IMG/VR virus record: IMGVR_UViG_2734482597_000010
DNA: 64,000 nucleotides
Source of the DNA: a virus
Lineage: Duplodnaviria; Heunggongvirae; Uroviricota; Caudoviricetes
Strand: one strand, 5' to 3'
This document shows positions 4,904-44,818 of the stretch, piece by piece. Each line of letters starts with the position of its first letter. The first letter of the stretch is position 1. A program made the position numbers and the translations under genes. The notes below the pieces were generated by a model. That model was not told the DNA's origin, ran no database searches, and saw only the letters and a list, made by a program, of their open reading frames with translations.

Positions 4904-5392
4904 ATGTTGGATGTATTTACTCCATTGTTGAAACTTTTTGCTAACGAGCCACTCGAAATACTTATGTATACGATTATCATTTTTGGTCTCACTCTCTGGC
5001 TGATACCGAAAGAGTTTACTGTCGCATTCAATGCTTATACTGAAATACCTTGGCTCTTTCAGATTATCGTTTTTGCCTTTTCTTTCGTGGTCGCCATTTC
5101 CTTCTCAAGATTGCGAGCACATATTCAAAAGCATTATTCATTACTACCAGAGCAACGAGTATTGCTTCGTTTATCTGAGAAAGAAATCGCTGTATTTAAA
5201 GATTTCCTTAAAACAGGAAATCTTATTATCACTTCTCCTTGCCGTAACCCGGTTATGAAAAAATTAGAACGGAAGGGCATCATTCAACATCAGAGTGATA
5301 GCGCAAACTGTTCTTATTATCTCGTCACCGAAAAATACTCCCATTTTATGAAGTTATTCTGGAACAGCAGGAGTAGACGTTTTAATCGTTAG
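4904..5392 (+). CDS. sieB: SieB superinfection exclusion protein (162 aa)
   Basis: ORF 4781..5392; start taken at MLDVFTPLLKLFANEPLE...; two hydrophobic segments. Confidence 0.9.
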   Translation: MLDVFTPLLKLFANEPLEILMYTIIIFGLTLWLIPKEFTVAFNAYTEIPWLFQIIVFAFSFVVAISFSRLRAHIQKHYSLLPEQRVLLRLSEKEIAVFKDFLKTGNLIITSPCRNPVMKKLERKGIIQHQSDSANCSYYLVTEKYSHFMKLFWNSRSRRFNR

Positions 5393-5554
5393 CTTACTGT
5401 GTGCTTCTCCAACCATCGGCGCGCACCAGTTTCGGTTTTAAATGTTTTGCTTTTGGTATACGTCATGGCAGTGAACGTTCCATCCTGGTTGGGGAACACG
5501 CCGCACACCAGGGATTCGTTGTTGCCGAGGTCGATTTTTTGCATTTTGCGAATC

Positions 5555-5689
5555 TCACATCTTGTTGCTGTGTATAGCGACTTCTGCCTGCCAGAGATCC
5601 CAGTCGTTGCTGCGTAAAGCCTGCACAGCCTGGTTGTAAGTGATACCGCAACAATCCATCAAATACTGAACTACTTCGTAATGCACCAT
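5555..5689 (-). CDS. ydaG: YdaG small protein (44 aa)
   Basis: ORF 5555..5737; MVHYEVVQYLMDCCGITYNQAVQALRSNDWDLWQAEVAIHSNKM from internal ATG. Confidence 0.75.
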   Translation of the reverse strand: MVHYEVVQYLMDCCGITYNQAVQALRSNDWDLWQAEVAIHSNKM

Positions 5690-5880
5690 CTTATCTCTCC
5701 CCTTAACGCCGGGTGGCGGAACTGAAACCTGCTGCACTGCAAAATCTGAACCCTGCCGTCATGTTCATACGCCTCGGGCTGGCTACTTAACCCCTGACCA
5801 CTGCCTGGTAACTCGAAGTATTGCCCTGCGTTCTGTGGGGCGGGGTGGGTTGGTAGGTATATAATGTACTTTGTGTTCAT
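5671..5880 (-). CDS. ydaF: YdaF-like small protein (ORF is 69 aa; K-12 annotation is shorter)
   Basis: ORF MNTKYIIYLPTHPAPQNAGQYFELPGSG...; position between ydaG and racR; exact start uncertain. Confidence 0.5.
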   Translation of the reverse strand: MNTKYIIYLPTHPAPQNAGQYFELPGSGQGLSSQPEAYEHDGRVQILQCSRFQFRHPALRGEIRWCITK

Positions 5881-5979
5881 TGATGTAAAGTACTATAAGT
5901 ACATTTTGTGTGTAAAAAAATGAGATGGGATAAAGTGAAGCACAAACCCGGAGGGGGACGCTACCGGATTTATGCTGGT

Positions 5980-6417
5980 TTAAGAGGCTTTTTGTTTTTT
6001 CTTTCGTGCTAGCTCTTCGTAAATTGCATTGTACTTCTGTTTTTTCTCCTCAAGAGTTTTTAAAAGTTCATCTGTCTCACTGTCAGGGAGCTCGTCCAGA
6101 AGGTCAATGATGATTTTTTGTCTTGGATTTAACTCCTGATAGAAACGTACCTGTCCACTTTCTTCTGTATCCTCTCCCAAAAGATAGGTTGGTGTTGTTC
6201 CAATGAGTGTTGCTAATTCCCTTAATTTCTCTCGGCGAGGAATTGTTTCGCCATTAAACCATTTGCTAACCGCTTTTGGTGTTAATTTCATTCGACGGGC
6301 AATTTCTGCCTGCCTTCCATGTTGTTCATAACCAGCGTTTTCACAGGCTAGCGCAAGCCTACTGGCGAACTCTTTACGCGCTTTATCTTCATGAACCATA
6401 AGTTCAATGATATTCAC
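5980..6417 (-). CDS. racR: RacR-like cI-type HTH repressor
   Basis: 145-aa ORF (GTG start; ATG at 6397-6399 is an alternative) with HTH segment RQAEIARRMKLTPKAVSKWFNGETIP; divergent from ydaS as in Rac immunity region. Confidence 0.65.
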   Translation of the reverse strand: MNIIELMVHEDKARKEFASRLALACENAGYEQHGRQAEIARRMKLTPKAVSKWFNGETIPRREKLRELATLIGTTPTYLLGEDTEESGQVRFYQELNPRQKIIIDLLDELPDSETDELLKTLEEKKQKYNAIYEELARKKKQKAS

Positions 6418-6478
6418 TCTTGAATGTACTGTCAGTTCTGTTATAGCATGTACTCAAAGTTCACATTGTGAGGGTGAT

Positions 6479-6733
6479 ATGAACCAGAAAACACTTGAAG
6501 ATGTAATCAAAACTGTTCGCGTTTCTGTTGTGGCCGACGTTTGTGGTGTCAGCCAAAGAGCAATCTACAAATGGATGGATAACGGAAAATTGCCTCGCAC
6601 AGAATATACCGGCGAAACAAATTACGCTGAAAAAATCGCTCATGCATCAAACGGATTATTTTCTGCTGATGTAATTTTAACTATTGGCAGAAATAAAACT
6701 ACTACGAAAAAGCTGATGGGAGTTGATTCATGA
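6479..6733 (+). CDS. ydaS: YdaS Cro-like HTH protein
   Basis: MNQKTLEDVIKTVRVSVVADVCGVSQRAIYKWMDNGKL...; GAGGGTGA RBS 4-8 nt upstream; the longer track ORF (6407) would overlap the racR start. Confidence 0.8.
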   Translation: MNQKTLEDVIKTVRVSVVADVCGVSQRAIYKWMDNGKLPRTEYTGETNYAEKIAHASNGLFSADVILTIGRNKTTTKKLMGVDS

Positions 6734-7152
6734 AAATCAAGCATGAGCACATCGAGTCAGTGTTGTTAGCCCTGGCAGCCGAAAAAGGGCAGGCATGGGT
6801 AGCCAATGCCATTACTGAAGAATATCTGCGCCAGGGGGGCGGCGAATTGCCCCTGGTACCAGGCAAGGACTGGAATAATCAGCAGAATATCTATCACCGT
6901 TGGTTGAAAGGTGAAACGAAAACGCAAAGAGAAAAAATTCAGAAGCTGATCCCAGCAATTCTGGCAATCCTTCCGCGCGAGCTGCGTCACCGACTCTGCA
7001 TCTTCGATACCCTGGAACGCCGTGCATTACTGGCGGCGCAGGAAGCGTTAAGTACGGCAATTGATGCGCATGATGATGCAGTCCAAGCCGTTTACCGGAA
7101 AGCGCATTTCAGCGGCGGCGGGTCTTCCGACGATTCTGTCATTGTTCATTAA
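6730..7152 (+). CDS. ydaT: YdaT (140 aa)
   Basis: 140-aa ORF MKIKHEHIESVLLALAAEKGQAWV...; ATGA overlap with ydaS stop. Confidence 0.85.
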   Translation: MKIKHEHIESVLLALAAEKGQAWVANAITEEYLRQGGGELPLVPGKDWNNQQNIYHRWLKGETKTQREKIQKLIPAILAILPRELRHRLCIFDTLERRALLAAQEALSTAIDAHDDAVQAVYRKAHFSGGGSSDDSVIVH

Positions 7153-7164
7153 GCAAAAGTTTCC

Positions 7165-8022
7165 ATGCTGTTTGTGCTTATTCTAAGCCACCGGGCAGCA
7201 TCATACGGGGCAATTATGGCCGCATTACCATACATGCAACTGTACATAGCTGATTACCTGGCTGACACCATGCATTTGTCAGCAGAGGAGCATGGTGCGT
7301 ATTTGTTGCTGATGTTCAATTACTGGCAAACAGGAAAGCCAATACCTAAAAACAGGCTGGCAAAAATTGCCCGTCTGACTAACGAGCGATGGGCTGATGT
7401 TGAACCATCCTTGCAGGAGTTTTTTTGCGATAACGGCGAGGAATGGGTGCATCTTCGGATTGAGGAAGATCTGGCATCAGTCAGGGAAAAATTAACCAAA
7501 AAATCAGCCGCAGGAAAAGCATCTGTTCAGGCCAGAAGAAGCAGAAAGGAAGCAGATGTTCAAACAAAACAAGAGAGAAATTTAACAGGTGTTCAAACAG
7601 ATGTTGAAGTGGTGTTTGAACATGATGTCAACACAAAGGCAACTAATAAAGATACAGATAAAGATCTAAAAACAGATCCCCCCCTAAATCCCCCCCGGGG
7701 GAATCGAGGTGTCAAAAAGTTTGACCCTCTGGATATTGCTTTGCCGAACTGGATTTCTGTCTCGCTTTGGCGTGAGTGGGTTGAATTTCGCCAGGCATTG
7801 CGAAAACCGATTCGAACGGAGCAGGGCGCTAACGGGGCGATACGGGAGCTGGAAAAATTCCGCCAGCAGGGTTTTTCACCTGAGCAGGTGATTCGACACA
7901 GCATCGCCAATGAATACCAGGGCTTGTTCGCGCCGAAAGGTGTTCGACCTGAGACGTTACTCCGACAGGTTAACACCGTCTCGTTACCGGATAGTGCGAT
8001 CCCGCCAGGCTTCAGGGGGTAA
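7165..8022 (+). CDS. ydaU: YdaU replication-initiation-like protein (285 aa)
   Basis: 285-aa ORF in the O-gene position of the replication module; length matches K-12 YdaU. Confidence 0.8.
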   Translation: MLFVLILSHRAASYGAIMAALPYMQLYIADYLADTMHLSAEEHGAYLLLMFNYWQTGKPIPKNRLAKIARLTNERWADVEPSLQEFFCDNGEEWVHLRIEEDLASVREKLTKKSAAGKASVQARRSRKEADVQTKQERNLTGVQTDVEVVFEHDVNTKATNKDTDKDLKTDPPLNPPRGNRGVKKFDPLDIALPNWISVSLWREWVEFRQALRKPIRTEQGANGAIRELEKFRQQGFSPEQVIRHSIANEYQGLFAPKGVRPETLLRQVNTVSLPDSAIPPGFRG

Positions 8023-8028
8023 CTGACC

Positions 8029-8775
8029 ATGAAAAATATTGCGACAGGCGACGTTCTTGAACGTATCCGCAGACTGGCCCCGTCACATGTAACCGCGCCA
8101 TTCAAGACGGTAGCGGAGTGGCGCGAGTGGCAACTTTCCGAAGGCCAGAAACGTTGTGAGGAGATCAACCGTCAGAATCGTCAGTTGCGGGTGGAAAAAA
8201 TTCTGAATCGCTCTGGCATCCAGCCATTGCACCGCAAATGCTCGTTTTCGAATTACCAGGTGCAGAACGAAGCGCAGCGATACGCGTTGAGTCAGGCGAA
8301 ATCCATCGCTGATGAACTGATGANNNNNNNNNNNNNNNNNNNNNNNNNNNNNNNNNNNNNNNNNNNNNNNNNNNNNNNNNNNNNNNNNNNNNNNNNNNNN
8401 NNNNNNNNNNNNNNNNNNNNNNNNNNNNNNNNNNNNNNNNNNNNNNNNNNNNNNNNNNNNNNNNNNNNNNNNNNNNNNNNNNNNNNNNNNNNNNNNNNNN
8501 NNNNNNNNNNNNNNNNNNNNNNNNNNNNNNNNNNNNNNNNNNNNNNNNNNNNNNNNNNNNNNNNNNNNNNNNNGGTGGTGCTGCACCAGATTGTTGATCG
8601 CCGGACAGCGTCGATGCGCAGCGTGGGGATGCTGACAAACCTGAACTATGAGGCCATGAAAACATTGCTCGGCGAGCGGATTATGGATCGCATGACCATG
8701 AACGGCGGGCGATGGGTGAATTTTAACTGGGAGAGCTGGCGTCCGAATGTCGTCCAGCCAGGAATTGAGAAGTAA
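8029..8775 (+). CDS. ydaV: YdaV DnaC-like helicase loader (interrupted by N run 8324-8573)
   Basis: 248-codon [37 protein letters not shown]...; P-gene position; central 250 nt are N. Confidence 0.8.
8324..8573. other. assembly gap (250 N) inside ydaV
   Basis: Run of N. Confidence 1.
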
Positions 8776-9991: not shown

Positions 9992-10129
9992 ACGTTACTA
10001 GATCAAAGAGCATTAGTTCATATGTAAATTGACATTTTTCTGGCACAGGGGAGAGCTAGCGTGGTTGTCCGCTTTGTGCCAATAGCGGACATTGCTGGCT
10101 CATGGTATGTTAGTTTAAGGAGGCAGGTT

Positions 10130-11152
10130 ATGCCCTGTATTTCGCTGTGGTATAATAGTTGCGCAATTGATACAAGGGAGCGTTACATCGTGAAAATTGT
10201 TTTCGAGGTTAATGGAAAGAAAGTTCCACTAAAATCTTTAAAATACATAAGCAAAAAAGATCAACTCGAAGTAATGAAAAACTGGTTCTTTGAAAACTTT
10301 GAAGATCCGGCAAATGCTTGTCCGTATGAAAGTAGAGAAGGTGGCTATGCTTACATATATGGCGGGCCGTATGATGCGAGCGAAGAACTACAATCCATCT
10401 TCGGTCAATATGTTAAATCTGAGTATATTGAGGAATTAGTAGATGAATTACAAACACAATGTTTTGACTGGTCTGGAAACTCAAATAATATAGATGATTG
10501 GTACGATGATGATATCTACGACGCTGTAACGTCTTCCGGTAATCCGTATTTAAAATTCATTGATAATATCGATAAAATAAAAAAACTTGCAAAAGATAAA
10601 ACTGAACAACAGCAAAAAAACCACTTGCTTAGTTTGCTCTACACGAATGTTATTACAGCTTTGGAAACGCTTTATGTTGAGCTATTCATTAATTCTATAG
10701 AGAAAGATGATGTCTACATAGCCAATTGTATAGAAAAAGGTAAGACTGAATTTAAAGTAAGCAAAGATATTGCTGCGTTGCCTTTCAAGGGTGAACCCAT
10801 CGAGAAAATTAGGGGAGAGCTAATCAGGTCAATCAAGGAACACTTGATCAGTGCAAGCTGGCATAGCACTAAAAAGGTAATCGACCGCTATGAAGCTACA
10901 TTCGATATAAAAGTACAAAAAGACTGTCCGATAGAAGCTATTGAATTGGCAACCCTCAATCGAAATCACTTAGTGCATCGTGGTGGAAAGGATAAAGAAG
11001 GGAACCTCGTAGTGATTACAGACCAGGATCTTGAAACGCTGATTGAAAATGCATCGAACCTGGCAATTATGCTCTACAACAGTTTAAATGTAGCAACGAA
11101 TAAAACCACCATTTTGCAACCAGATGACAAACCGTTCATTCATGAATTTTAA
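10130..11152 (+). CDS. hypothetical protein with C-terminal R-N-x-x-x-H (HEPN-like) motif; AT-rich cargo gene A
   Basis: ATG at 10130 preceded by AAGGAGG (7-nt spacer); alternative start GTG 10190. Motif RNHLVH is encoded at 10961-10978, in frame. Visibly AT-rich codon usage. No family confidently recognised. Confidence 0.6.
   Translation: MPCISLWYNSCAIDTRERYIVKIVFEVNGKKVPLKSLKYISKKDQLEVMKNWFFENFEDPANACPYESREGGYAYIYGGPYDASEELQSIFGQYVKSEYIEELVDELQTQCFDWSGNSNNIDDWYDDDIYDAVTSSGNPYLKFIDNIDKIKKLAKDKTEQQQKNHLLSLLYTNVITALETLYVELFINSIEKDDVYIANCIEKGKTEFKVSKDIAALPFKGEPIEKIRGELIRSIKEHLISASWHSTKKVIDRYEATFDIKVQKDCPIEAIELATLNRNHLVHRGGKDKEGNLVVITDQDLETLIENASNLAIMLYNSLNVATNKTTILQPDDKPFIHEF
10148..10156 (+). 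promoter_or_regulatory. candidate extended -10 promoter element TGgTATAAT
   Basis: Sequence ctgTGgTATAATag at 10148-10156; lies upstream of GTG 10190 (AAGGGAG RBS) but inside the ORF if the start is ATG 10130. Confidence 0.35.
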
Positions 11153-11167
11153 TAGCGCAGGTCATAC

Positions 11168-12169
11168 ATGGATATTCGCACACGAAAGACAAAATTTTTA
11201 GAGTCGTTAGATTCAACTGAAGTGATACGCAAAGCAGTAAGTCTCGCTATAGATTGCATTATTGATAATCATAATAGTAATGAAGATACCCCCTTAGTTA
11301 TTACCAGCTATGATGATCTCTGTAGAATCCAGGTGCTAAATTATGTACAGGAGTTTTGCGAAGCTGCATTCCCTGATATGGATGAATATTACTTTAGTCC
11401 TAACATACTTCGCATCAACGGCAAGACTAGTGAAGAAGCTTGTATTAACTTAATTAAACTCTTAAGAAGTACAAAAGGCATGCTATTCTGGTCCGATGCC
11501 CCATCGTGGTTCGCTAGCCTCCCCGACGGATTATTCCATGTTGTTAACATTGATCAAAAAATCGTTACTCGCGGCCTTAATAAGAAAAACTCTAAGCCGA
11601 CAATAATCAATAAAGATTACAGTGTAGATACACTACTATCAGAGCTATTTTTGAATGGCGCACACATGGAGCAACCCAACGTACACAACGTTTCTGAGGG
11701 AAACATGAAGTTCTATGATGAATGCCATGCTGGATTAATCAGACCAATACCCGCTCCAATAGGCGCGTCATACGATGAAGAGATCACAATTAATTCTCCA
11801 GATTGGCAAAAGCTCGCGTGTGTAGCTTTACGCCGCTATCAGTCGAAGGAATGTCATGACGGAATGCAATGGGATACAACCGATCATGGTTGGACTGATG
11901 TAATCGCGTATCCATTCGTCGAAGAAATACAATCAATGGATAATAGTGGTTATCGACAATGTTTAGTTGGGCTGGTCACAATAAACAATTCAAATGCAAA
12001 TTCTCCGTACCTATCTACCGTTTGGATACATCCATTTTATCGCAGGAGAGGGTTATTAAGTAAGTTATGGCCAAAATTACAAGAGTTATATGGAAGTAAC
12101 TTCGAAATTGAGCGACCTAATGAAAATATGAAAGCATTTCTGAAAAGTGCGAAACACGCAGATTACTAA
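11168..12169 (+). CDS. hypothetical protein, cargo gene B (333 aa; C-terminal region weakly GNAT-like)
   Basis: ORF 16 nt downstream of gene A, same strand, AT-rich; C-terminal ..VWIHPFYRRRGLLSKLWPKLQELYG.. loosely resembles acetyltransferase motif A; not a confident call. Confidence 0.55.
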   Translation: MDIRTRKTKFLESLDSTEVIRKAVSLAIDCIIDNHNSNEDTPLVITSYDDLCRIQVLNYVQEFCEAAFPDMDEYYFSPNILRINGKTSEEACINLIKLLRSTKGMLFWSDAPSWFASLPDGLFHVVNIDQKIVTRGLNKKNSKPTIINKDYSVDTLLSELFLNGAHMEQPNVHNVSEGNMKFYDECHAGLIRPIPAPIGASYDEEITINSPDWQKLACVALRRYQSKECHDGMQWDTTDHGWTDVIAYPFVEEIQSMDNSGYRQCLVGLVTINNSNANSPYLSTVWIHPFYRRRGLLSKLWPKLQELYGSNFEIERPNENMKAFLKSAKHADY

Positions 12170-14541: not shown

Positions 14542-14831
14542 TGGTGAATTTACGTAAAGCGGCTAAAGGCCAGATGTGCCAGATCAGAATCCCTGGCTAC
14601 TGCAATCACAATCCCGAAACCTCTGTGCTGGCGCATTACAGGCTGGCGGGGACGTGCGGAACAGCGACAAAACCACATGATATGCAGGCGGCGATAGCCT
14701 GTAGCTCATGCCACGATCTAATCGACGGGCGGGTAAAAACCAGCGATTACACCAAAGAAGAATTGCGCCTGATGCATGCTGAAGGGGTTTTTCGCACACA
14801 AGAAATCTGGAGAAAGAAAGGTCATTTATGA
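14541..14831 (+). CDS. YbcO-like small putative nuclease (DUF1364), 96 aa
   Basis: 96-aa ORF with four Cys (MCQIRIPGYC...CSSCHDL); length and motif recall DLP12 YbcO; ATGA overlap with upstream gene. Confidence 0.6.
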   Translation: MVNLRKAAKGQMCQIRIPGYCNHNPETSVLAHYRLAGTCGTATKPHDMQAAIACSSCHDLIDGRVKTSDYTKEELRLMHAEGVFRTQEIWRKKGHL

Positions 14832-15370
14832 TTTACCCAACGAATACAGGAAAAAGCGGAGAACACCTTCGCCTCACCACGCTGGAAAGTGTCTGGATTC
14901 AGGGAAAACTACGTATGTGGGGGCGCTGGTCGTATATTGGCGGTGGCAGGTCAGGGAATATGTTCAATCAGTTGTTGGCATCCAAAAAACTGACGAAAAC
15001 AGCCATTAATGAAGCCCTGCGCAGAATGAAAAAAGCGGGAATAGAGAAAGCTGAGCTGGAAGCGTTTTTGCGAGAGATGATCAACGGCAAGCAAAAGAGC
15101 TGGCTGGCGCATTGTACTGATGCAGAGGCGTTATGTATTGATCGAGTCATAAGTGAGGTGCTGGCAGAGCATCCAGGATTGATTTGCATTCTCCGGCAAC
15201 GCTATGAAGGGCGGGGGATGACTAAGCGCAAAATGGCTGAATTGCTAAATGATGCACACCCAGAGTGGTGTTTTAGCACATGCGAAAAACGGATTGCTAA
15301 TTGGTTAGCTGTTGCTGAGTATGCCCTATATATTCCCATGCGTGAATCATTTGCTGAGAAAATGGCTTGA
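14828..15370 (+). CDS. putative late-gene antiterminator Q-like protein (180 aa)
   Basis: Last gene of the nin region, immediately upstream of terminators and the lysis cassette; family assignment from position and overall resemblance only. Confidence 0.5.
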   Translation: MIYPTNTGKSGEHLRLTTLESVWIQGKLRMWGRWSYIGGGRSGNMFNQLLASKKLTKTAINEALRRMKKAGIEKAELEAFLREMINGKQKSWLAHCTDAEALCIDRVISEVLAEHPGLICILRQRYEGRGMTKRKMAELLNDAHPEWCFSTCEKRIANWLAVAEYALYIPMRESFAEKMA

Positions 15371-17640: not shown

Positions 17641-17860
17641 ATGAAATCCATGGACAAAATTTCAACAGGCATTGCCTACGGCACCTCCGCAGGCAGTGCT
17701 GGCTACTGGTTTTTACAGTTGCNNNNNNNNNNNNNNNNNNNNNNNNNNNNNNNCTGCAATCGGTGTGCTGGGTAGTCTGGTATTTGGCCTGCTGACGTAC
17801 CTGACAAACCTTTATTTCAAGATTAAAGAAGATAAGCGCAAGGCTGCGAGAGGTGAATAA
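17641..17860 (+). CDS. phage-21-type class II holin (S21/pinholin-like), interrupted by N run 17723-17753
   Basis: [26 protein letters not shown]...[gap]...[34 protein letters not shown]; GGAGGTGA RBS; the frame break is caused by the N run. Confidence 0.8.
17723..17753. other. assembly gap (31 N) inside the holin gene
   Basis: Run of N. Confidence 1.
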
Positions 17861-18818: not shown

Positions 18819-18955
18819 AATCTTAACTACAATATGATTCATTTTGATGATTGTTTCATAAGGAACAGTGAAGTAAGATCTAAGAGGAGTTAAATTTTAT
18901 ACAGTATAATCATAATATTGCAGCAAGGTGGTTATAATTGAAAGAATATTTAGAT

Positions 18956-20413
18956 ATGAATACATCTCATGTAAGAGTTGTTACTCATATGTGTGGGTTC
19001 CTGGTTTGGCTCTATAGTCTTTCAATGTTGCCACCAATGGTTGTAGCATTGTTTTATAAAGAAAAAAGCCTGTTCGTTTTCTTTATAACTTTCGTTATAT
19101 TTTTTTGCATTGGTGGCGGAGCGTGGTATACAACTAAGAAATCTGGCATTCAATTACGTACCCGTGATGGGTTTATTATAATTGTAATGTTTTGGATTTT
19201 GTTTTCTGTTATTAGTGCATTCCCTTTATGGATTGACTCAGAACTTAATTTAACGTTCATTGATGCTCTGTTTGAAGGGGTTTCTGGAATAACAACAACA
19301 GGAGCAACTGTAATTGATGATGTTAGTTCATTACCTCGGGCATATTTGTACTATCGGTCACAGTTAAATTTTATAGGTGGTTTAGGAGTTATTGTTCTGG
19401 CGGTTGCAGTATTGCCATTATTGGGTATTGGTGGTGCAAAGCTTTATCAGTCAGAAATGCCGGGGCCATTTAAGGATGACAAACTCACTCCCCGCCTGGC
19501 CGATACGTCACGGACACTGTGGATAACTTATTCTTTATTAGGTATTGCTTGTATTGTCTGTTATAGACTTGCAGGAATGCCTTTGTTTGATGCTATTTGT
19601 CACGGGATTTCCACAGTTTCGCTTGGTGGTTTCTCAACTCATAGCGAGAGTATCGGATATTTTAATAACTATTTGGTTGAGCTGGTGGCTGGTTCTTTTT
19701 CCCTGCTATCGGCTTTCAACTTCACTCTTTGGTATATTGTTATTAGCAGAAAAACGATAAAACCTTTAATCAGAGATATTGAACTTCGTTTCTTTCTGTT
19801 AATAGCCTTAGGGGTGATCATTGTTACCTCTTTCCAGGTCTGGCATATAGGTATGTATGACTTGCATGGAAGTTTTATTCATTCGTTTTTTCTTGCCAGC
19901 TCCATGCTCACTGATAATGGTTTAGCTACGCAGGATTATGCAAACTGGCCCACGCACACGATAGTGTTTTTGCTGTTGTCAAGTTTCTTTGGGGGATGTA
20001 TAGGTTCAACCTGTGGTGGAATTAAGTCACTTCGATTTCTTATACTTTTCAAACAAAGCAAACACGAGATAAATCAGCTTTCTCATCCCAGAGCGTTGTT
20101 GAGTGTAAATGTAGGAGGGAAGATAGTTACAGATCGTGTAATGAGGTCTGTATGGAGTTTCTTTTTTCTTTATACTCTCTTCACGGTGTTTTTTATACTG
20201 GTGTTAAATGGTATGGGATATGATTTTCTTACATCATTTGCAACAGTGGCTGCATGTATTAATAATATGGGATTAGGTTTTGGGGCTACTGCATCGTCAT
20301 TCGGAGTGCTTAATGACATTGCAAAATATTTAATGTGCATAGCTATGATTCTTGGTCGCCTTGAAATTTATCCTGTTATTATATTGTTTTCAGGTTTTTT
20401 TTGGCGCTCCTAA
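18956..20413 (+). CDS. trkG: TrkG potassium uptake protein (485 aa), prophage cargo
   Basis: MNTSHVRVVTHMCGFLVWLYSLSMLPPMVVALFYKEK... multi-pass membrane protein matching K-12 TrkG; AT-rich. Confidence 0.9.
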   Translation: MNTSHVRVVTHMCGFLVWLYSLSMLPPMVVALFYKEKSLFVFFITFVIFFCIGGGAWYTTKKSGIQLRTRDGFIIIVMFWILFSVISAFPLWIDSELNLTFIDALFEGVSGITTTGATVIDDVSSLPRAYLYYRSQLNFIGGLGVIVLAVAVLPLLGIGGAKLYQSEMPGPFKDDKLTPRLADTSRTLWITYSLLGIACIVCYRLAGMPLFDAICHGISTVSLGGFSTHSESIGYFNNYLVELVAGSFSLLSAFNFTLWYIVISRKTIKPLIRDIELRFFLLIALGVIIVTSFQVWHIGMYDLHGSFIHSFFLASSMLTDNGLATQDYANWPTHTIVFLLLSSFFGGCIGSTCGGIKSLRFLILFKQSKHEINQLSHPRALLSVNVGGKIVTDRVMRSVWSFFFLYTLFTVFFILVLNGMGYDFLTSFATVAACINNMGLGFGATASSFGVLNDIAKYLMCIAMILGRLEIYPVIILFSGFFWRS

Positions 20414-20550
20414 TATATGGCTGATTTATAATTGTGAGTTTAATATTATGTTGACTCACTCATTGATCCAATACCTAACTTTACCAGCAACACCTCCGCC
20501 CCCAGTAGCACTGGCTGCTGGGGTGCGTTTTATTCATAAAGCAAGGCTGT

Positions 20551-21339
20551 ATGAGCGAGAAATTAAAGATAGTCTATCGCCCATTACAAGAATTGTCACC
20601 GTATGCGCACAACGCCAGGACGCACAGTACTGAGCAGGTGGCACAACTGGTAGAAAGTATTAAGCAATTCGGCTGGACTAATCCGGTGCTGATTGACGAA
20701 AAGGGCGAAATTATTGCGGGTCACGGTCGTGTTATGGCGGCTGAAATGCTCAAAATGGATTCTGTTCCGGTCATTGTTCTGTCTGGCCTGACGGATGAGC
20801 AGAAAAAGGCGTACCGCCTGGCAGATAATCGCCTGCCGATGAATGCTGGCTGGGATGAAGATCTGTTGCGGATGGAGCTGTCGGACCTAATCAATGCTGA
20901 TTTTGATGTCTCCCTGACAGGCTTCATCCCGGCAGAAATTGATGAACTGTTGACGGATGTTTTGCCCGGTACAGGAAATGAGGAGGAGCCGTATACGACG
21001 AAAATTGATACGCCTGTTTATGAGCCGTCAGGCGGTAAACCGGATATCAGTGAACTGTACGACGATACGAAAACTCAGGAGCTGATCAGCCGGATACGTT
21101 CGGCGTCCCTTGATCCTGATATTGAGAAATTCCTCCTGTGTGCAGCAGAACGTCACACGGTGTTTAATTTCAGCAGAATTGCGGACTATTACGCTCATGC
21201 CCCCGCTGAAATTCAGTGCCTTTTCGAGGAGTCGGCGCTGGTGATCATTGATTATCAGCAGGCTATTGAAAATGGATTTGTCCGAATGACGCAGCGCATG
21301 GTGGAGATCATGCATGGCGGGGAGGAGGAATATGCGTGA
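20551..21339 (+). CDS. ParB-like nuclease domain protein (262 aa; intact form of the K-12 ynaK/ydaY remnants)
   Basis: N-terminal ParB/Srx-type segment ..NPVLIDEKGEIIAGHGRVMAAEML..; upstream of the packaging genes. Confidence 0.7.
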   Translation: MSEKLKIVYRPLQELSPYAHNARTHSTEQVAQLVESIKQFGWTNPVLIDEKGEIIAGHGRVMAAEMLKMDSVPVIVLSGLTDEQKKAYRLADNRLPMNAGWDEDLLRMELSDLINADFDVSLTGFIPAEIDELLTDVLPGTGNEEEPYTTKIDTPVYEPSGGKPDISELYDDTKTQELISRIRSASLDPDIEKFLLCAAERHTVFNFSRIADYYAHAPAEIQCLFEESALVIIDYQQAIENGFVRMTQRMVEIMHGGEEEYA

Positions 21340-22264
21340 TGATTTTTGCGCCTTTATTCTGACTCACGGGCGACCGGACAAAGTTCTGACTTACCGGACG
21401 TTGCGTCGTGCTGGCTATACCGGGAAAATTTTTATCGTTGTTGATGATGAAGATAAGACACGGCATCAGTACATGGCTGAATTTGGTGAACAGGTGCTGG
21501 TATTTTCCAAAGCCGATATTGCTAGTCGTTTTGACGAAGCCGATAATTTTAGTGACCGCCGCTCAATTTTTTACGCCCGTAATGCCTGTTTCGACCAGGC
21601 AAAACTGGTCGGGTGTAAATACTTCATTCAGCTCGATGATGATTATCACGAGTTCCAGTTTCGGGTGGATCGCAACTATGACCAGGCCTATTTCCCGATA
21701 AGGAAACTGGATGAGATCCTTTCTGAAATGCTTGCGTACTACGAATCAATACCTGCTCTTTCCATCGCTATGTCGCAGGGCGGGGATTTTCTTGGTGACA
21801 ATGGCGGCCATGCTTCGTGGGTGAAACGCAAGGCAATGAACAGCTTTATCTGTTCGGTTGATCGACCGTTCTCATTCATGGGGCGCATTAACGAGGATGT
21901 GAATACGTACACGAATCTCGGTCGCTGTGGTGAATTGTTTATGACGATCGGTGCTGTCCAGTTAGGGCAGAAACAGACGCAGAAAAACAGCGGCGGAATG
22001 ACCGAGCTGTATCTGGATTCCGGAACCTACGTTAAAAGTTTTTACTCCGTCATGTATGCGCCGTCGTGCGTAAAAATCTCACTTATGGGTGCCAGTCATA
22101 AACGCATTCACCATCAGGTCACCTGGAACAACGCTGCAGTAAAAATCCTTCACGAAAAATACAGGAAGAAGACACCCTGCATATCAATGGGGGTGACAAA
22201 TGATTCCGTATTCGAAAGTCGAGTCTCTGGCAGCGTGCCGGATGACTGCACAACAAATCGCTGA
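21332..22264 (+). CDS. hypothetical protein with DxD-type signatures (possible nucleotide-sugar transferase fold)
   Basis: GGAGGAGG RBS before ATG 21332; contains FIVVDDED and IQLDDDYH; fold assignment is a guess. Confidence 0.4.
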   Translation: MRDDFCAFILTHGRPDKVLTYRTLRRAGYTGKIFIVVDDEDKTRHQYMAEFGEQVLVFSKADIASRFDEADNFSDRRSIFYARNACFDQAKLVGCKYFIQLDDDYHEFQFRVDRNYDQAYFPIRKLDEILSEMLAYYESIPALSIAMSQGGDFLGDNGGHASWVKRKAMNSFICSVDRPFSFMGRINEDVNTYTNLGRCGELFMTIGAVQLGQKQTQKNSGGMTELYLDSGTYVKSFYSVMYAPSCVKISLMGASHKRIHHQVTWNNAAVKILHEKYRKKTPCISMGVTNDSVFESRVSGSVPDDCTTNR

Positions 22265-22451
22265 CGTTCTGGATGTTGATCTGAACCGACTGAAAGAAAA
22301 TCGGGAAGCAATGACAGATTTTTATGCGGCCATCCGTAAGGGCAGAGCGAAAGGTGAAGCCGAGTTACGAGCGGCATTGTTTAAGCTTGCCAGAAAAGGG
22401 GATGCCTTTGCTCTGCGCGAACTACTCAGGGTGGATAAAAATCAGGACTAA
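22200..22451 (+). CDS. small putative DNA-binding protein (83 aa)
   Basis: ORF immediately upstream of and in frame with the terminase small subunit, separated by a TAA; real start may be internal. Confidence 0.3.
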   Translation: MIPYSKVESLAACRMTAQQIADVLDVDLNRLKENREAMTDFYAAIRKGRAKGEAELRAALFKLARKGDAFALRELLRVDKNQD

Positions 22452-22454
22452 CTG

Positions 22455-23549
22455 ATGAGCAGACCGGACTGGGGGGCGTTGCAGCAGGAGTATATTGCTG
22501 AATACACCCGCTCCGGTATATCTCCGGTGGCATGGTGTGAAGCAAGGGGACTGAATTACGCAACAGCCCGTCGTTACATCAAAAAAACTCCGAAAAATGC
22601 GCAGACAGAAATGTGCAAAACTGCGCAAAAAAGTGCGCAGAAAAAATCTGCGCAGACTGCACAAAAGCGGAACGAAAAATCTCAGGAAAAAAAGCCAGTA
22701 TTCGATGCGGGCCTGAATGAGGGCGACGCGGAGGAATTTTCGTTCTGTCCCGATGAATTCGGCATTTCTGACCAGCAGGCTAAGTTTGCGATGCTTGTTG
22801 CTCAGGGTAAAAAGCCGACAGAGGCGTACCGACTAGCCGGTTATGAGGGGCAAGGTGCGACAGCTAACAGCAACGCCAGTCGTATGCTTAGAAATGCCAG
22901 GGTTTTTCGCGCTATCAGCTACTTCCGCAATCAGTACCAGAAACGCTATACCGCAGACCTGGATTTACTAGTGAGTCAGTTGATGGCTATTGTCCTGGCC
23001 GACCCCAATCAGCTTGCACAATTTCGCCGTGTTAACTGCCGTTATTGCTGGGGCGAGAATCATCTCTACCAGTGGCGCGATATAGCAGAATTCGACAAGG
23101 CAGCGGCGCAGGCTTCCAGAGATGGCAAACCCGAACCGGAATATGGAGGCCTCGGCTTTGTTGATAACGCCATACCCAATCCGGACTGCCCGAAGTGCTG
23201 CGGTGAGGGAACGGGACAGCTTTATATGGCTGATACCACTCTGCTTGATGGGGATGCGCGGCAATTATATGCAGGGGCAAAATTCGGAAAATTCGGCGTT
23301 GAGATCCTGCTGGAGGATAAGGCTGCCGCCCGGCGTGAATTGTTGCGTTTGTTTTCTGCTGGCGGGGCTTTATGTGCAGATAAGCGGCTACGGGAACTGG
23401 AAATTGAACGGCGCAGAATGGAAAACCAGAAGCTGCGCAAAGAGATCGAAACGGTGGAAGATAATGAACATCCCCAGCCTGTGGCGATCAATATTAATGT
23501 GGTTGATGCCAGAGTAAGGAGTGATGAAGATGATCTCTCCGACGCTTAA
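22455..23549 (+). CDS. terminase small subunit (HTH N-terminus, Cys-pair C-terminus)
   Basis: Position directly upstream of the large terminase; N-terminal HTH-like segment; CxxC...CxxC cluster. Confidence 0.55.
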   Translation: MSRPDWGALQQEYIAEYTRSGISPVAWCEARGLNYATARRYIKKTPKNAQTEMCKTAQKSAQKKSAQTAQKRNEKSQEKKPVFDAGLNEGDAEEFSFCPDEFGISDQQAKFAMLVAQGKKPTEAYRLAGYEGQGATANSNASRMLRNARVFRAISYFRNQYQKRYTADLDLLVSQLMAIVLADPNQLAQFRRVNCRYCWGENHLYQWRDIAEFDKAAAQASRDGKPEPEYGGLGFVDNAIPNPDCPKCCGEGTGQLYMADTTLLDGDARQLYAGAKFGKFGVEILLEDKAAARRELLRLFSAGGALCADKRLRELEIERRRMENQKLRKEIETVEDNEHPQPVAININVVDARVRSDEDDLSDA

Positions 23550-24831
23550 TGTGCCTCAGGCGCGATTTCTTTCAATGCCCCATAAATTTAAAGCCTATAT
23601 TGCTGGTTTTGGCTCGGGCAAAACATGGGTTGGGTGTGGCGGCATATGCAAGGGGATTTGGGAGCATCCAGGTATAAATCAGGGATATTTTGCGCCAACG
23701 TATCCCCAAATTCGCGATATTTTTTACCCTACAGTGGAAGAAGTTGCTGCTGACTGGGGATTGAACGTAAAAATTAATGAGGGAAATAAAGAGGTTCACT
23801 TTTATTACGGACGCCAGTATCGGGGAACCACTATCTGCAGATCGATGGAGAAGCCACAAACGATCGTCGGTTTCAAAATTGGTAATGCGTTGGTGGATGA
23901 ACTGGACATTTTGCCGAAGGAAAAAGCCAGAACGGCGTGGCGCAAGATAATTGCACGTATGCGTTATAAGATTGATGGACTTCGCAACGGTATTGACGTT
24001 ACAACCACGCCGGAAGGATTCAAATTTGTCTACGAGCAGTTTGTTAAAGCCGTGCGTGAAAAAACAGAGCTGGCCTCACTGTATGGTCTGGTGCAGGCAT
24101 CTACTTTCGATAATGAAAAGAACCTGCCAGCAGATTACATTCCTTCGCTTCTTGAATCATACCCTCCAGAGCTGATTAAAGCCTATCTTCGAGGACAGTT
24201 TACTAACCTGACAAGTGGTACTGTTTACCATCAGTTTGACCGGAAACTGAATAATTGCGAAGAAGTGGAGCAGCCAGGGGAGCCGATTTATATTGGGATG
24301 GATTTTAACGTTGGAAAGATGGCGGGAATCGTCCATGTGCTGCGTTTGGGGCTTCCATGTGCGGTAACTGAAATCATCAATGCCTACGATACGCCGGATA
24401 TGATCCGCATCATTAAAGAACGCTTCTGGCTGTATGATGGGAATGATTACCGGAAAGTGAGGGAAATTTATATTTATCCAGATGCTTCCGGGGATTCCAG
24501 AAAATCAAGTAACGCAAGTACGACGGATATAGCCCAGCTTAAGCAGGCTGGTTTTAACGTTGTGGTGAACAGCTCGAACCCGCCAGTAAAAGATCGCGTT
24601 AACTCAATGAATGCAATGTTCTGCAATGCCAATGGTGAGCGTCGCTATAAAGTTAATGTGAAGCGTTGCCCGTTATATGCCGAATCTCTGGAGCAACAGG
24701 TCTGGGATGAGAAGGGGGAGCCTGATAAAAAATCTGGCAATGATCACCCGAATGATGCCGGAGGTTATTTCATCGTTAAGCAATTCCCTATTGTCAAACC
24801 GACCGGAAGAGTCACATCACTTCGGATTTAA
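23521..24831 (+). CDS. terminase large subunit (ATPase/nuclease)
   Basis: Walker A-like AGFGSGKT near the N-terminus; position and size. Confidence 0.7.
   Translation: MMKMISPTLNVPQARFLSMPHKFKAYIAGFGSGKTWVGCGGICKGIWEHPGINQGYFAPTYPQIRDIFYPTVEEVAADWGLNVKINEGNKEVHFYYGRQYRGTTICRSMEKPQTIVGFKIGNALVDELDILPKEKARTAWRKIIARMRYKIDGLRNGIDVTTTPEGFKFVYEQFVKAVREKTELASLYGLVQASTFDNEKNLPADYIPSLLESYPPELIKAYLRGQFTNLTSGTVYHQFDRKLNNCEEVEQPGEPIYIGMDFNVGKMAGIVHVLRLGLPCAVTEIINAYDTPDMIRIIKERFWLYDGNDYRKVREIYIYPDASGDSRKSSNASTTDIAQLKQAGFNVVVNSSNPPVKDRVNSMNAMFCNANGERRYKVNVKRCPLYAESLEQQVWDEKGEPDKKSGNDHPNDAGGYFIVKQFPIVKPTGRVTSLRI

Positions 24832-41137: not shown

Positions 41138-44818
<3,681 letters not shown>

Follow-up and report, generated by a model that had tools for sequence, protein, structure and literature searches.

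The question raised by this locus is what a ParB-like gene (ORF A) and a glycosyltransferase gene (ORF B), lying side by side just ahead of the packaging genes of a Rac-like E. coli prophage, do for the phage that carries them. The window analysed is a 64,000-nt stretch of the virus record IMGVR_UViG_2734482597_000010 (Caudoviricetes), in which the pair occupies positions 20,551 to 22,264. The features of the pair and of its surroundings are listed in Table 1.

Table 1. Positions of the gene pair, its modules, and the adjoining features in the window.
Feature	Position	Strand	Description
Terminator-like hairpin closing the trkG insert	20500..20523	+	10 pairs followed by a T-run; 28 nt 5' of the ParB ATG
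ORF A, ParB/Srx-fold gene (putative adaptor), full-length form of K-12 ynaK	20551..21339	+	262 aa; Pfam, PHROG, Foldseek
ORF A N-terminal module, residues 1-140	20551..20970	+	ParB/Srx NTPase fold; box I NAR, box II AGHGR, box III ADN
ORF A C-terminal module, residues 145-262	20983..21336	+	Nameless glycosyltransferase-specific domain, ~110 aa
Translational-coupling junction	21321..21339	+	GGAGGAGG Shine-Dalgarno 21321-21328, ATG 21332-21334, upstream stop TGA 21337-21339
ORF B, TAGT-family GT-A glycosyltransferase	21332..22264	+	310 aa; RefSeq 'GREB1-related protein'
Small ORF between glycosyltransferase and TerS	22242..22451 (alternative start 22200)	+	70-83 aa; PHROG 309 'terminase small subunit' 8.3e-23
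Terminase small subunit (TerS)	22455..23549	+	Pfam Terminase_2 3.8e-8; PHROG 51 7e-75; packaging genes begin
Terminase large subunit (TerL)	23521..24831	+	Pfam Terminase_6N 3.7e-33, Terminase_6C 3.4e-10

The initial annotation, made from the sequence alone, had assigned a ParB/Srx-type N-terminal domain to the 262-aa product of ORF A, and profile searches bore this out. ORF A exceeded the cut-off of Pfam ParB_N (PF02195; 29.3 bits against 26.3, E = 8.7e-7) and matched PHROG 620 (1.7e-90), and its profile matches in PDB were Noc, ParB, and Spo0J (approximately 5e-5). Foldseek returned ParB (6sdk), Noc (7nfu), MxParB, PadC, and KorB, with 7bnr, 6ryk, and 8qa9 also among the entries. The term "nuclease domain" in the same annotation is a legacy name only; the domain has a ParB/Srx NTPase fold, and nothing points to nuclease activity. 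The identification of ORF A as a nuclease, for which the old domain name was the sole support, was accordingly dropped. A canonical partition ParB of a ParABS system was also rejected, because TIGR00180 scored only 38.1 bits against a cut-off of 58.45 and the protein is accompanied by neither ParA nor a helix-turn-helix. No ParA is annotated in the prophage (EC2 and NCTC10444 annotations), no DNA-binding helix-turn-helix family was detected in ORF A by a Pfam profile search, and a repeat scan found no convincing parS-like site near the gene pair.

ORF A consists of two modules. In the N-terminal module, boxes I to III are invariant in the family alignment and align with GERR of Noc/ParB, and the phosphate-binding residues R23 (N-A-R), R60 (A-G-H-G-R), and N93 (A-D-N) are invariant as well. 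The hydrolysis residues Q and E of box I (Q-x-R) and box II (G-E-R-R) are replaced by N and H, box II of ORF A being AGHGR. Judging from the alignment, the module appears to keep the NTP-binding residues in part. When the N-terminal module was used as a tblastn query, 497 phage records were obtained, and about half of 45 sampled rows were annotated as DNA methyltransferases or methylases, with identities of 30-55%. The N-terminal part of the PADLOC Type II MTase model (1.5e-38) and PHROG 498 'DNA methyltransferase' (6e-51) also match this module.

The C-terminal module has no match in Pfam. Its conserved motifs are Y-T-x-K-I-x-x-P-x-Y-E-P and AAERHTVFNF / SALVIID, and among its residues Y148, T149, K151, P155, Y157, E158, and P159 never vary. 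They belong to a segment with a model pLDDT below 50, and the C-domain as a whole was also modelled with a pLDDT below 50. The module matched 28 phage records in a tblastn search, and all 28 encode a TAGT (TET-associated glycosyltransferase). Among representative clusters, 1195 match the C-terminal module, which is nearly always the C-terminal part of a protein of 240-310 aa; in the Vibrio phage pv27 it is a separate 139-aa protein adjoining the TAGT. The identity of the module across phyla is 44-57%. Since the gene is labelled a partial ynaK in some RefSeq E. coli genomes (EC2, NCTC10444), the C-domain is unannotated there.

The product of ORF B was identified as a TAGT. It scored 118.9 bits against Pfam PF20691 (cut-off 27.5, E = 3.7e-34), the match spanning residues 8-222 of the protein and positions 4-205 of the 205-position profile, and it matched PHROG 842 (7.5e-104), which is named after the T2/T6 beta-glucosyl-HMC-alpha-glucosyltransferase. 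The motifs FIVVDDED and LDDDY, from which a nucleotide-sugar-transferase fold had been guessed, are present at residues 33-40 and 101-105 in invariant or near-invariant alignment columns; the length of 311 aa given with them included the stop codon, and the protein has 310 aa. The guess of the fold itself proved right: in addition to the DxD motif and the PF20691 match, a GT-A core was modelled with a pLDDT above 80 (residues 1-150), and Foldseek found GT-A enzymes in PDB and TAGT proteins in BFVD (E = 3e-20). The PDB matches are generic to the GT-A fold and include the self-glucosylating glycogenin and peptide S-glycosyltransferases. The C-terminal approximately 120 residues were modelled with a pLDDT below 50. 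The profile and structure annotation called for at the outset therefore places ORF A in the ParB/Srx fold and ORF B among the GT-A TAGTs, and neither in an unrelated fold.

R14, D38/D41, D102-D103-D104-Y105, and N187-E188-D189 are invariant in the ORF B family alignment. The motif R...DDD...EDY/F has been reported for phage GT-A DNA glycosyltransferases and the base-J glucosyltransferase, and the signature R14...D102-D103-D104...E188-D189 matches it, with V190 instead of Y/F after the invariant E188-D189. This match was counted in favor of a DNA-acting transferase. Phage GT-A enzymes are reported to glycosylate 5hmC, and the T2/T6 beta-glucosyl-HMC-alpha-glucosyltransferase belongs to PF20691.

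The two genes are tightly joined. The 8-nt overlap and the ribosome-binding site GGAGGAGG noted initially were both read directly from the sequence at 21321-21339. Among 82 related E. coli-type loci, ORF A is intact (262-264 aa, with the same overlap with ORF B) in 78, and the TAGT is intact in all 82. The pN/pS values were 0.17 for ORF A and 0.11 for ORF B, equal to or below those of the terminase genes; both genes are under purifying selection. These figures speak against a pair of ORFs that arose by chance.

A single-protein query returned only near-identical E. coli prophages, and the wider set of loci was obtained with an alignment query in species-representative genomes. The hosts of the paired loci include Enterobacteria, Bacteroidota, Clostridia, Veillonella, Chlorobi, Acidobacteriota, Saccharibacteria, and an archaeal MAG; the pair is also present in the Lactobacillus phages c5 and phi jlb1, a Porphyromonas phage, and the haloarchaeal virus HHTV-2. 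Of 47 assessable loci, 46 have the ParB-like gene overlapping or abutting the start of the TAGT; in the remaining one, it lies 1.6 kb upstream. The functional pairing of the two genes, at first only surmised, thus gained very strong support from conserved adjacency. In roughly 34-36 of 37 loci, the first large gene 3' of the pair encodes a terminase subunit, from four unrelated terminase families in all, and the pair precedes the terminase in c5, phi jlb1, and the Porphyromonas phage as well. In phage c5, it is the first gene pair after cos. The carriers include cos and headful phages with differing capsid types. No third conserved partner gene was found: apart from the terminase groups (13-14 loci), no family occurs in more than 11 of 48 loci. 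The identity of the TAGT across phyla is 42-59%, and this level of identity in the TAGT and the C-domain, while all other neighbours differ, argues for a universal substrate such as DNA.

Within the window, the gene order is ParB, TAGT, small ORF, TerS, and TerL. The position "immediately upstream of the terminase" given initially is nearly exact, except that the small ORF intervenes before TerS. Homologues of this ORF lie directly 3' of the TAGT in eight related loci, and RefSeq carries it as a 'hypothetical protein' CDS; it is likely a helix-turn-helix packaging-recognition protein and a member of the packaging block. On the 5' side, trkG (18938..20413) has a G+C content of 37.7% compared with 47-51% in its neighbours, and a Q-like antiterminator is encoded at 14828..15370. 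Because of the terminator-like hairpin in front of the ParB ATG, the pair must depend on antiterminated late transcription. It is part of the late operon.

The intact ORF A differs from the fragments retained in K-12, as had been pointed out: in the Rac prophage of MG1655, ynaK is a 264-nt, 87-aa stump abutting ydaY, and the glycosyltransferase gene, the terminase, and the head genes are all absent. K-12 ydaY was considered as a glycosyltransferase remnant and rejected; ydaY sits 3' of the tail-tube gene, and the transferase is simply missing from K-12. The region matched 1610 E. coli genomes and was at least 80% covered in 867 of 5426 complete genomes. Many E. coli Rac prophages are degraded.

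The main difficulty concerns the acceptor. To our knowledge, the characterised TAGT-type enzymes all use a hydroxyl acceptor (hmC, hmU, or a sugar), which canonical DNA bases lack, and we know of phage DNA glycosylation solely as the final step after hydroxymethylation of cytosine or thymine. The prophage annotation was taken from NCTC10444, which is 99.9% identical over the first 25 kb of the window; EC2 is not collinear with the window. The annotations of the NCTC10444 prophage and of EC2 contain no TET/JBP enzyme, ThyA-like hydroxymethylase, or DNA methyltransferase, and none of these enzymes was detected among the window ORFs scanned with Pfam. A hidden dioxygenase, hydroxymethylase, or methyltransferase in the prophage was rejected on these grounds. 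Among 142 upstream neighbours of 48 loci, no family of the TET/JBP, hydroxymethylase, or DNA methyltransferase type recurs (two or more times). The genomic association of the TAGT family with TET/JBP enzymes, or with another source of hydroxymethyl-pyrimidine, is thus not seen at this locus.

We consider with moderate confidence that the pair is expressed late and glycosylates phage DNA, the ParB protein acting as an adaptor or activator. The two genes would form a DNA-modification cassette within the late operon of the phage, in which ORF B would act as a metal-dependent (DxD) GT-A transferase moving a sugar from a nucleotide-sugar donor. ORF A would be its dedicated partner: the C-terminal domain of approximately 110 aa would bind or activate the transferase, and the N-terminal module would recruit the transferase to double-stranded phage DNA or keep it there, probably by forming a nucleotide-gated dimer or clamp. 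Expression together with the terminase would direct the action of the pair to replicated, concatemeric DNA, during packaging or shortly ahead of it. Virion DNA carrying sugar adducts might then blunt the nucleases of the next host; an anti-restriction role of the pair is conjecture. The confinement of the C-domain to TAGT-bearing phages and the sharing of the N-terminal module with DNA methyltransferases were counted in favor of the adaptor role. The obligate pairing, the place ahead of the terminase, and the low pN/pS values speak for the same reading. In one locus, there are two TAGT paralogues in tandem, of which one is fused to a domain with the motif VVDLGNGLG, which by eye looks methyltransferase-like; such an arrangement is as expected when a decorated glycan is built. 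The points that we count against DNA glycosylation by the pair are the failure to find an acceptor-generating enzyme in the prophage annotation, the scanned window ORFs, or among recurring neighbours, the hydroxyl acceptor used by characterised TAGT-type enzymes, protein glycosylation by GREB1, the replaced ParB hydrolysis residues, the failure to detect a helix-turn-helix, and the poor models of the TAGT C-terminal residues and the ParB C-domain.

In a bolder version, which we regard as possible but rather unlikely, the two genes would be a self-sufficient DNA glycosylation system that works without a hydroxymethylase or dioxygenase in any bacterial or archaeal host, placing a sugar onto ordinary DNA by means of a nucleotide-gated ParB-fold clamp. 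As neither enzyme would be needed, the target would be something in ordinary DNA; candidates are a canonical base, through N- or O-glycosylation, and the 3'-OH ends produced by terminase cutting. The only free hydroxyls of normal DNA are 3'-OH ends.

The acceptor may instead be a protein, although we consider this unlikely. ORF B would then be a protein glycosyltransferase like vertebrate GREB1, modifying its partner ORF A or another packaging or virion protein, and the ParB module would merely localise it. GREB1, which has a TAGT-type domain, is reported to O-GlcNAcylate ER-alpha, and ORF B carries the RefSeq name 'GREB1-related'. The failure to find a hydroxymethyl-base pathway in the prophage annotation or among recurring neighbours agrees with this explanation, as do the strict co-inheritance of the partner C-domain with the enzyme, which would be expected of a substrate or primer, and the occurrence of glycogenin and peptide S-glycosyltransferases among the PDB neighbours. 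A candidate site is P-Y-T-x-K-I-D-T-P-V-Y-E-P-S at residues 147-160, which is invariant, rich in Tyr, Thr, and Ser, and probably disordered, its invariant residues Y148-P159 lying in the segment of low pLDDT. On the other hand, the nearest characterised relatives and the entire phage branch of the family act on DNA, the N-terminal module elsewhere accompanies DNA methyltransferases, and the PDB matches are generic to GT-A. The virion and packaging proteins of the carriers, with four terminase families and varied capsid types, differ completely, so the partner is the only possible conserved protein acceptor.

That the acceptor is hydroxymethyl-pyrimidine DNA from elsewhere, either hmC/hmU DNA of a superinfecting phage (in exclusion or defence) or DNA modified by a distant dioxygenase, appears very unlikely to us. 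It would retain the known chemistry of the family, and Pyle et al. suggest that prophage glycosyltransferases might hypermodify invading viral DNA. However, the pair lies in the late operon, behind a terminator and 3' of the Q-like antiterminator, a position in which it should be silent in the lysogen. Other carriers are L. delbrueckii phage c5, Vibrio phages of 191 kb, and a haloarchaeal virus; the paper on pv27 describes a lytic phage without lysogeny genes. Moreover, PADLOC gave no match for the transferase, and the annotation of the whole prophage in the near-identical genome lists no dioxygenase.

A packaging accessory, in which the ParB-like protein acts at pac/cos or organises concatemers and the transferase-fold protein is structural or regulatory, seems highly improbable. 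The constant position of the pair directly 5' of the terminase genes, and right after cos in phage c5, is what such a role would predict. Nevertheless, the transferase has the same catalytic residues in every phylum compared, and the occurrence of one type of pair with four unrelated terminase families in cos and headful phages argues against a specific interaction with the terminase. In the 191-kb Vibrio phages, the C-domain and the transferase are kept within the replication module, far from the packaging genes, and most relatives of the carrier phages package without the pair. Finally, a functionless, decaying remnant of a larger TET/JBP hypermodification cluster is scarcely credible: the family is named for a TET/JBP association that is missing here and many E. 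coli Rac prophages are degraded (867 of the 1610 matching genomes at 80% coverage or more), but both genes show low pN/pS values (0.11-0.17, not above those of the terminase genes) and are intact in nearly all copies (TAGT 82/82, ParB 78/82), and the same two genes, with no third partner, have been kept together in different phyla and in lytic phages in culture.

Glycosylation of phage DNA by the pair remains our preferred reading. The cassette, a glycosyltransferase with a dedicated ParB-type partner and no hydroxymethyl-forming enzyme found, is widespread and highly conserved, with further copies on prophages and MAG contigs from many bacterial phyla. The transferase may act on DNA by an undescribed route, or the "DNA" branch of its family may include protein glycosyltransferases. 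If the two genes are self-sufficient, an undescribed DNA modification chemistry would be present in prophages of approximately one-sixth of complete E. coli genomes. The analysis further points to a domain of approximately 110 aa without a family name as the actual partner of the enzyme. "Solitary" TAGT genes and non-partition ParB proteins have both been flagged as open questions in recent papers; the former were noted in 288 of 753 glycosyltransferase-encoding phage genomes, without being characterised there. Both questions are tractable in an inducible E. coli prophage. In the literature, Iyer et al. 2013 itself aside, we found no characterised ParB-glycosyltransferase pair, no account of HHTV-2 DNA modification, and no relevant work on the Vibrio phages.

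Among known systems, the T2/T6 beta-glucosyl-HMC-alpha-glucosyltransferase and the phage TAGTs share with ORF B the Pfam family, the GT-A fold, and the R...DDD...ED signature. The T-even enzymes add a second glucose to glucosyl-hmC, in a pathway with a dCMP hydroxymethylase and an alpha- or beta-glucosyltransferase, and none of those genes is present here. ORF B showed no detectable similarity to T-even proteins in tblastn, the nearest T4-like match being Aeromonas phage 65 (22%), and unlike the T-even enzymes it has a dedicated ParB-fused partner. Among cellular proteins, the base-J glucosyltransferase (JGT) of trypanosomatids is reported to be structurally closest to the phage GT-A DNA glycosyltransferases and to share their active-site motifs. 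JGT, which we liken to ORF B by description only, requires 5hmU made by JBP1/2, whereas no JBP-like gene is present here. GREB1, the source of the RefSeq name, has a TAGT-type domain; this eukaryotic protein is large, its substrate for O-GlcNAcylation is a nuclear receptor, and it has neither a ParB partner nor a link to DNA packaging.

ParB-fold partners of DNA-modifying enzymes are known from two other settings, which we count as precedents for the preferred reading. In the 7-deazaguanine system, DpdB combines a ParB fold at its N-terminus with an alpha-helical C-domain, and its ATPase is stimulated by DpdA-DNA. DpdB resembles ORF A in being the ParB-fold partner of a DNA-modifying enzyme, but DpdA/DpdB differs from the present pair in that it is a bacterial restriction-modification system with a base-swapping transglycosylase and the motif DGQQR. 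The phage T-dioxygenase 5mYOX176 requires its cognate-specific ParB176 on dsDNA (O'Toole et al. 2026, PMC13229309). In that study, the short ParB consists of a nucleotide-binding domain and a C-terminal domain, has no obvious DNA-binding domain, and adjoins a post-replicative modifying enzyme. The ParB-dioxygenase clusters are often located near terminases and glycosyltransferases, and glycosyltransferases went with the ParB-independent subclass (PMC13229309). The two pairs may be likened by description only, since the client there is a dioxygenase and here a glycosyltransferase; no TET/JBP-family dioxygenase client, which marks the ParB-dependent 5mYOX class, is found at this locus.

A further parallel is provided by the ParB-terminase ("ParB-Tls") loci, for which a link between DNA modification and packaging has been proposed (Iyer et al. 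2013, as cited in PMC4738411 and PMC8256090; Kaljevic et al. 2025). The idea of a DNA modification module next to the packaging genes, put forward in the initial annotation, matches this published concept as cited in PMC4738411 and PMC8256090. In the ParB-Tls loci, the ParB module is fused to a methyltransferase acting on canonical bases, whereas in ORF A it is joined to a small putative adaptor domain, and the glycosyltransferase is a separate, translationally coupled protein. The N-terminal ParB module (30-55% identity), the place ahead of the terminase, and the proposed logic are the same as here, and the locus has the ParB gene and the modifying enzyme adjoining the terminase by which the citing papers define the class. 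We regard the pair as a variant of the known ParB-terminase DNA-modification loci.

Both open reading frames of the pair, ORF A (the ParB-like gene, a full-length form of K-12 ynaK) and ORF B (the TAGT-family glycosyltransferase gene), were found where the initial annotation had placed them, and the FIVVDDED and LDDDY motifs of ORF B were confirmed in the sequence. In an alignment that includes relatives down to 59% identity, the columns of these motifs are invariant or nearly so. The start of ORF B overlaps ORF A by 8 nt and is preceded by GGAGGAGG. K-12 Rac had been noted to keep only fragments; in MG1655, ynaK is reduced to an 87-aa stump with ydaY directly after it, and ORF B and the terminase and head genes are deleted there. 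The pair had also been described as lying immediately upstream of the terminase; ORF B does precede TerS and TerL (the small and large subunits), with a small ORF in between. No masked N-run touches the ORF A/ORF B region, and the runs break up several window genes, e.g. a tail gene.

Features of the window and of comparison loci
Feature	Position	Strand	Length	Remark
ORF A	20551..21339	+	262 aa	TGA at 21337-21339
ORF B	ATG 21332, end 22264	+	310 aa	
GGAGGAGG	21321-21328			ORF B ATG 3 nt beyond
Small ORF	between ORF B and TerS		70-83 aa	terminase-small-subunit-like PHROG match
TerS	22455..23549			
TerS direct repeats	22580-22656			3 copies
TerL	23521..24831			
Q-like gene	14828..15370			
trkG insert with hairpin	18938-20523			37.7% G+C
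trkG hairpin	20500-20523			ends 28 nt before ParB ATG
Adjacent 'hypothetical' genes	10061-11152, 11168-12169			early or middle region
N-runs	8324-8573, 17723-17753, 37910-38236, 38868, 57633-57952, 57991-58240, 60005-60254			
Interrupted tail gene	37455-38693			
Region past Rac-type tail genes	38900-64000			
IS3-family transposase fragment	38900-39322			
Nu1	40592-41137			lambda-like module
gpA terminase	41112-43037			lambda-like module
Stretch unannotated in EC2/NCTC10444	20809-21331		~520 bp	compare L001 20410-20932, L137 33206-33728 (comparison loci)
Hyphomonadaceae MAG (L121)	2614-6161			variant cassette
Faecousia MAG (L096)	10875-11447		190 aa	extra ParB-like ORF
Vibrio phage pv27 (L135)	6459-6878		139 aa	C-domain gene
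Vibrio phage pv27 (L135)	6887-7888			TAGT homologue, 45% identity
L. delbrueckii phage c5	ORF1 + ORF2			directly after cos, ahead of TerL
L. gasseri phage phi jlb1	genes 024 + 025			ahead of TerS
Porphyromonas phage				same arrangement, only 27% identity
Haloarcula virus HHTV-2	gp21 + gp22			a few small genes before TerL

ORF A was barely over the threshold of Pfam ParB_N and matched PHROG 620 (1.7e-90). Its profile matches in the PDB were Noc, ParB, and Spo0J, and its structural model, which like that of ORF B rests on a shallow alignment (13-15 sequences), matched ParB-CDP (6sdk), Noc, M. xanthus ParB, PadC, and KorB. The phosphate contacts of the ParB CTPase pocket (R of N-A-R, R of A-G-H-G-R, and N of A-D-N) are invariant, and the hydrolysis residues of partition ParBs (Q and E) are replaced. 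A partition ParB was considered and rejected: ORF A is below the TIGR00180 cut-off, has no recognisable HTH, and is not accompanied by ParA. ORF A belongs to the ParB/Srx fold and not to the partition ParBs; the 'nuclease' of the initial annotation is only a legacy domain name.

Residues 1-140 of ORF A (the ParB module) were detected by tblastn in 497 phage records. Approximately half of 45 sampled rows (30-55% identity) carried an annotation as adenine- or cytosine-DNA methyltransferase or methylase, a PADLOC Type II methyltransferase model matched the same residues (1.5e-38), and PHROG 498 ('DNA methyltransferase') matched as well (6e-51). As an add-on, the ParB module is in wide use among phage DNA-modifying enzymes. 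Residues 145-262 (the C-domain), for which no Pfam family was found, were detected by tblastn in only 28 phage records, all 28 of which encode a TAGT. When 1.84 billion representative proteins were searched, the C-domain was present in 1195 clusters, where it nearly always makes up the last ~110 aa of proteins 240-310 aa long. Three 191-kb Vibrio phages (pv27, Va1, and phiKT1024) have it without the ParB module, as a free-standing 139-aa protein (56.7% identity) whose gene lies directly upstream of the TAGT gene within a replication module; in pv27, genes for primase, exonuclease, and helicase surround the two. It is therefore the 'C-domain plus TAGT' that forms the invariant unit. In the RefSeq records of the E. 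coli genomes EC2 and NCTC10444, PGAP calls ynaK a 258-nt 'partial, missing C-terminus' pseudogene and the following ~520 bp carry no annotation, so that the C-domain is invisible there. The 262-aa ORF is intact in these genomes, and EC2 is 100% identical to the window across the 2.1-kb region.

ORF B scored 118.9 bits against Pfam PF20691 (TET-Associated Glycosyltransferase, TAGT; cut-off, 27.5) and matched PHROG 842 (7.5e-104); RefSeq names its product 'GREB1-related protein' or 'hypothetical protein'. In the AlphaFold model, a GT-A core (residues 1-150) is confident, with pLDDT mostly above 80, and the model is poor past residue 184. Foldseek retrieved GT-A glycosyltransferases, including K4CP, SpsA, glycogenin, and SunS, from the PDB (E ~1e-4) and phage TAGT-domain proteins from BFVD (E 3e-20, TM 0.63-0.69); no sequence-related solved structure was found. 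The earlier guess of a nucleotide-sugar-transferase fold is borne out by the PF20691 match, the GT-A core, and these GT-A matches. R14, D102-D104, and E188-D189 are invariant and match the R...DDD...ED(Y/F) signature that Pyle et al. give for GT-A DNA glycosyltransferases of phages and for the base-J glucosyltransferase. ORF B is a Pfam TAGT member by sequence, fold, and motifs, and its locus lacks the TET association behind the family name.

Of 5426 complete E. coli genomes, 1610 carry the 2.1-kb region, 867 of them with at least 80% coverage; ten induced-prophage records carry it too. When one genome per species was scanned, 45 loci (42-99% identity) were obtained from Enterobacteria, Bacteroidota, Clostridia, Veillonella, Chlorobi, Acidobacteriota, an alphaproteobacterium, Saccharibacteria, and an archaeal MAG. 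Three more came from protein look-up, and one of the 48 was cut at a contig end, leaving 47 assessable. The neighbourhood counts come from simple ORF calling with BLAST/HMMER clustering. In 46 of the 47, a ParB-like ORF on the same strand abuts or overlaps the TAGT start; in the remaining one, it lies 1.6 kb upstream. ParB and TAGT were the only families common to more than 14 of the 48 loci, and a terminase subunit was the first large downstream ORF in ~34-36 of 37. The pair recurs in this arrangement in four cultured phages, c5, phi jlb1, a Porphyromonas phage, and HHTV-2 (see table). Among 142 upstream proteins, replication and regulatory proteins were the commonest Pfam families; C5-methylases occurred four times and N6/N4-methylases three times. 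TET/JBP was absent from the upstream families seen at least twice in this survey of the 25 commonest families, which a single-locus dioxygenase could escape. The Hyphomonadaceae locus encodes a ParB-like protein (324 aa), a 564-aa TAGT fusion whose C-terminal domain, with a VVDLGNGLG motif, was read by eye as methyltransferase-like, and a second TAGT paralogue (323 aa); this variant looks like glycan elaboration. In the Faecousia locus, a shorter ParB-like ORF lies directly downstream of the TAGT, besides the usual upstream one.

The first 25 kb of the window are 99.9% identical to NCTC10444, where the element sits at ttcA and looks like a complete Rac-type prophage, with the order int, xis, recET, immunity region, replication genes, Q-like antiterminator, lysis genes, trkG, the pair, TerS, TerL, portal, P22-type capsid, and tail genes. 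The late strand carries the pair, which lies downstream of both the Q-like gene and the trkG insert; the latter ends in a strong terminator-like hairpin. Therefore, the pair is expected to be made late along with the packaging proteins. Lower in G+C than its neighbours (47-51%), the trkG insert separates the late operon's lysis genes from its packaging genes. Towards its 5' end, the TerS gene carries a direct repeat, AAAAA(N)TGCGCAGA, encoding a recurring K/A/Q-rich peptide (KNAQTE..KTAQKSAQKKSAQTAQK); this may serve for pac-type recognition or as a flexible linker. Elsewhere, two adjacent 'hypothetical' genes, the second of which is frameshifted in EC2 and intact in the window, gave sub-threshold Pfam hints of a HEPN/RES N-terminal domain (1.9e-4) and a GNAT acetyltransferase (9e-4), and may be an accessory or defence-related pair. 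Past the Rac-type tail genes, the transposase fragment is followed by a second, lambda-like late module (Nu1, gpA, lambda-type portal, S49 protease, capsid protein E, tail proteins Z and V, tape measure, and tail fibre), reflecting either two tandem prophage late regions or a chimeric prophage.

The best-supported reading of the pair is a late-expressed DNA glycosylation cassette, and for DNA glycosylation in general we put the chances at about even. From E. coli to Bacteroides, Clostridia, and a halovirus, the pair retains 42-59% identity and all surrounding genes differ; such conservation across hosts amid changing neighbours argues for a universal substrate, as DNA is. The ParB module would hold the transferase on dsDNA, possibly as a nucleotide-gated dimer, and the C-domain would dock or activate it; sugar would be added to replicated phage DNA around packaging time and might protect the injected genome. 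The chemistry is the weak point: the characterised TAGT relatives all glycosylate hydroxyls (those of hmC, hmU, or a sugar, and of Ser/Thr in the case of GREB1), whereas the pair comes without an enzyme that would form one. Within DNA glycosylation, the novel case, in which the pair acts self-sufficiently on ordinary DNA with a base heteroatom or a terminal 3'-OH as a new acceptor, is rather doubtful. A protein acceptor is unlikely; the obvious candidate would be the strictly co-inherited ORF A, with its invariant Y/T/S-rich disordered segment. Smaller weight is given to hydroxymethyl-DNA supplied in trans; no TET/JBP dioxygenase, thymidylate-synthase-like hydroxymethylase, or DNA methyltransferase was found in the NCTC10444 prophage annotation, the EC2 annotation, or the scanned window ORFs. 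A non-catalytic packaging role is also given smaller weight, the downstream terminases being of four unrelated types (Terminase_6N, Terminase_3, lambda gpA, and Rac-type TerS). Decay is likewise of smaller weight: in E. coli-type loci, the TAGT gene is intact in 82 of 82 and the ParB gene, with the same overlap, in 78 of 82, and pN/pS is 0.11 for TAGT, 0.17 for ParB, 0.19 for TerS, and 0.16 for TerL.

The pair, read here as a putative DNA glycosylation cassette, consists of known parts in an arrangement with unexplained chemistry. Pipelines already label both proteins, and the idea goes back to 2013; the additions are the absence of an acceptor pathway, the new delimitation of the C-domain, the spread over phyla and into an archaeal virus, and an E. 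coli system to hand, which together allow a direct test of a question already flagged as open. The T2/T6 beta-glucosyl-HMC-alpha-glucosyltransferase belongs to the TAGT family, and 'solitary' TAGTs, which 288 of 753 GT-encoding phage genomes contain, were called uncharacterised in 2026 (PMC13216743; see also PMC13390438). Phage GT-A enzymes encoded beside 5mYOX (TET/JBP-type dioxygenase) glycosylate 5hmC; Pyle et al., who report this, set aside the ~65% of mined GT contigs in which neither 5mYOX nor ThyS was a neighbour. ParB genes were noted in TET clusters (PMC8256090, which credits Iyer et al. 2013 with the idea that ParB guides modification during packaging); the term 'ParB-Tls locus' appears in PMC4738411, citing the same work. 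ParB folds that occur as orphans or in fusions bind various NTPs, and in prophages they are often joined to methyltransferases (Kaljevic et al. 2025). Some phage thymine dioxygenases require a cognate ParB-fold protein, comprising an NBD and a CTD without a DNA-binding domain, for dsDNA activity (O'Toole et al. 2026, PMC13229309). The literature search yielded no paper characterising either a ParB-TAGT pair or the DNA of a phage bearing one. DpdB is another ParB-fold partner of a DNA-modifying enzyme. The pair fits the published concept of a ParB-terminase modification locus and resembles the ParB-dependent 5mYOX systems in its working, but is not one of them.
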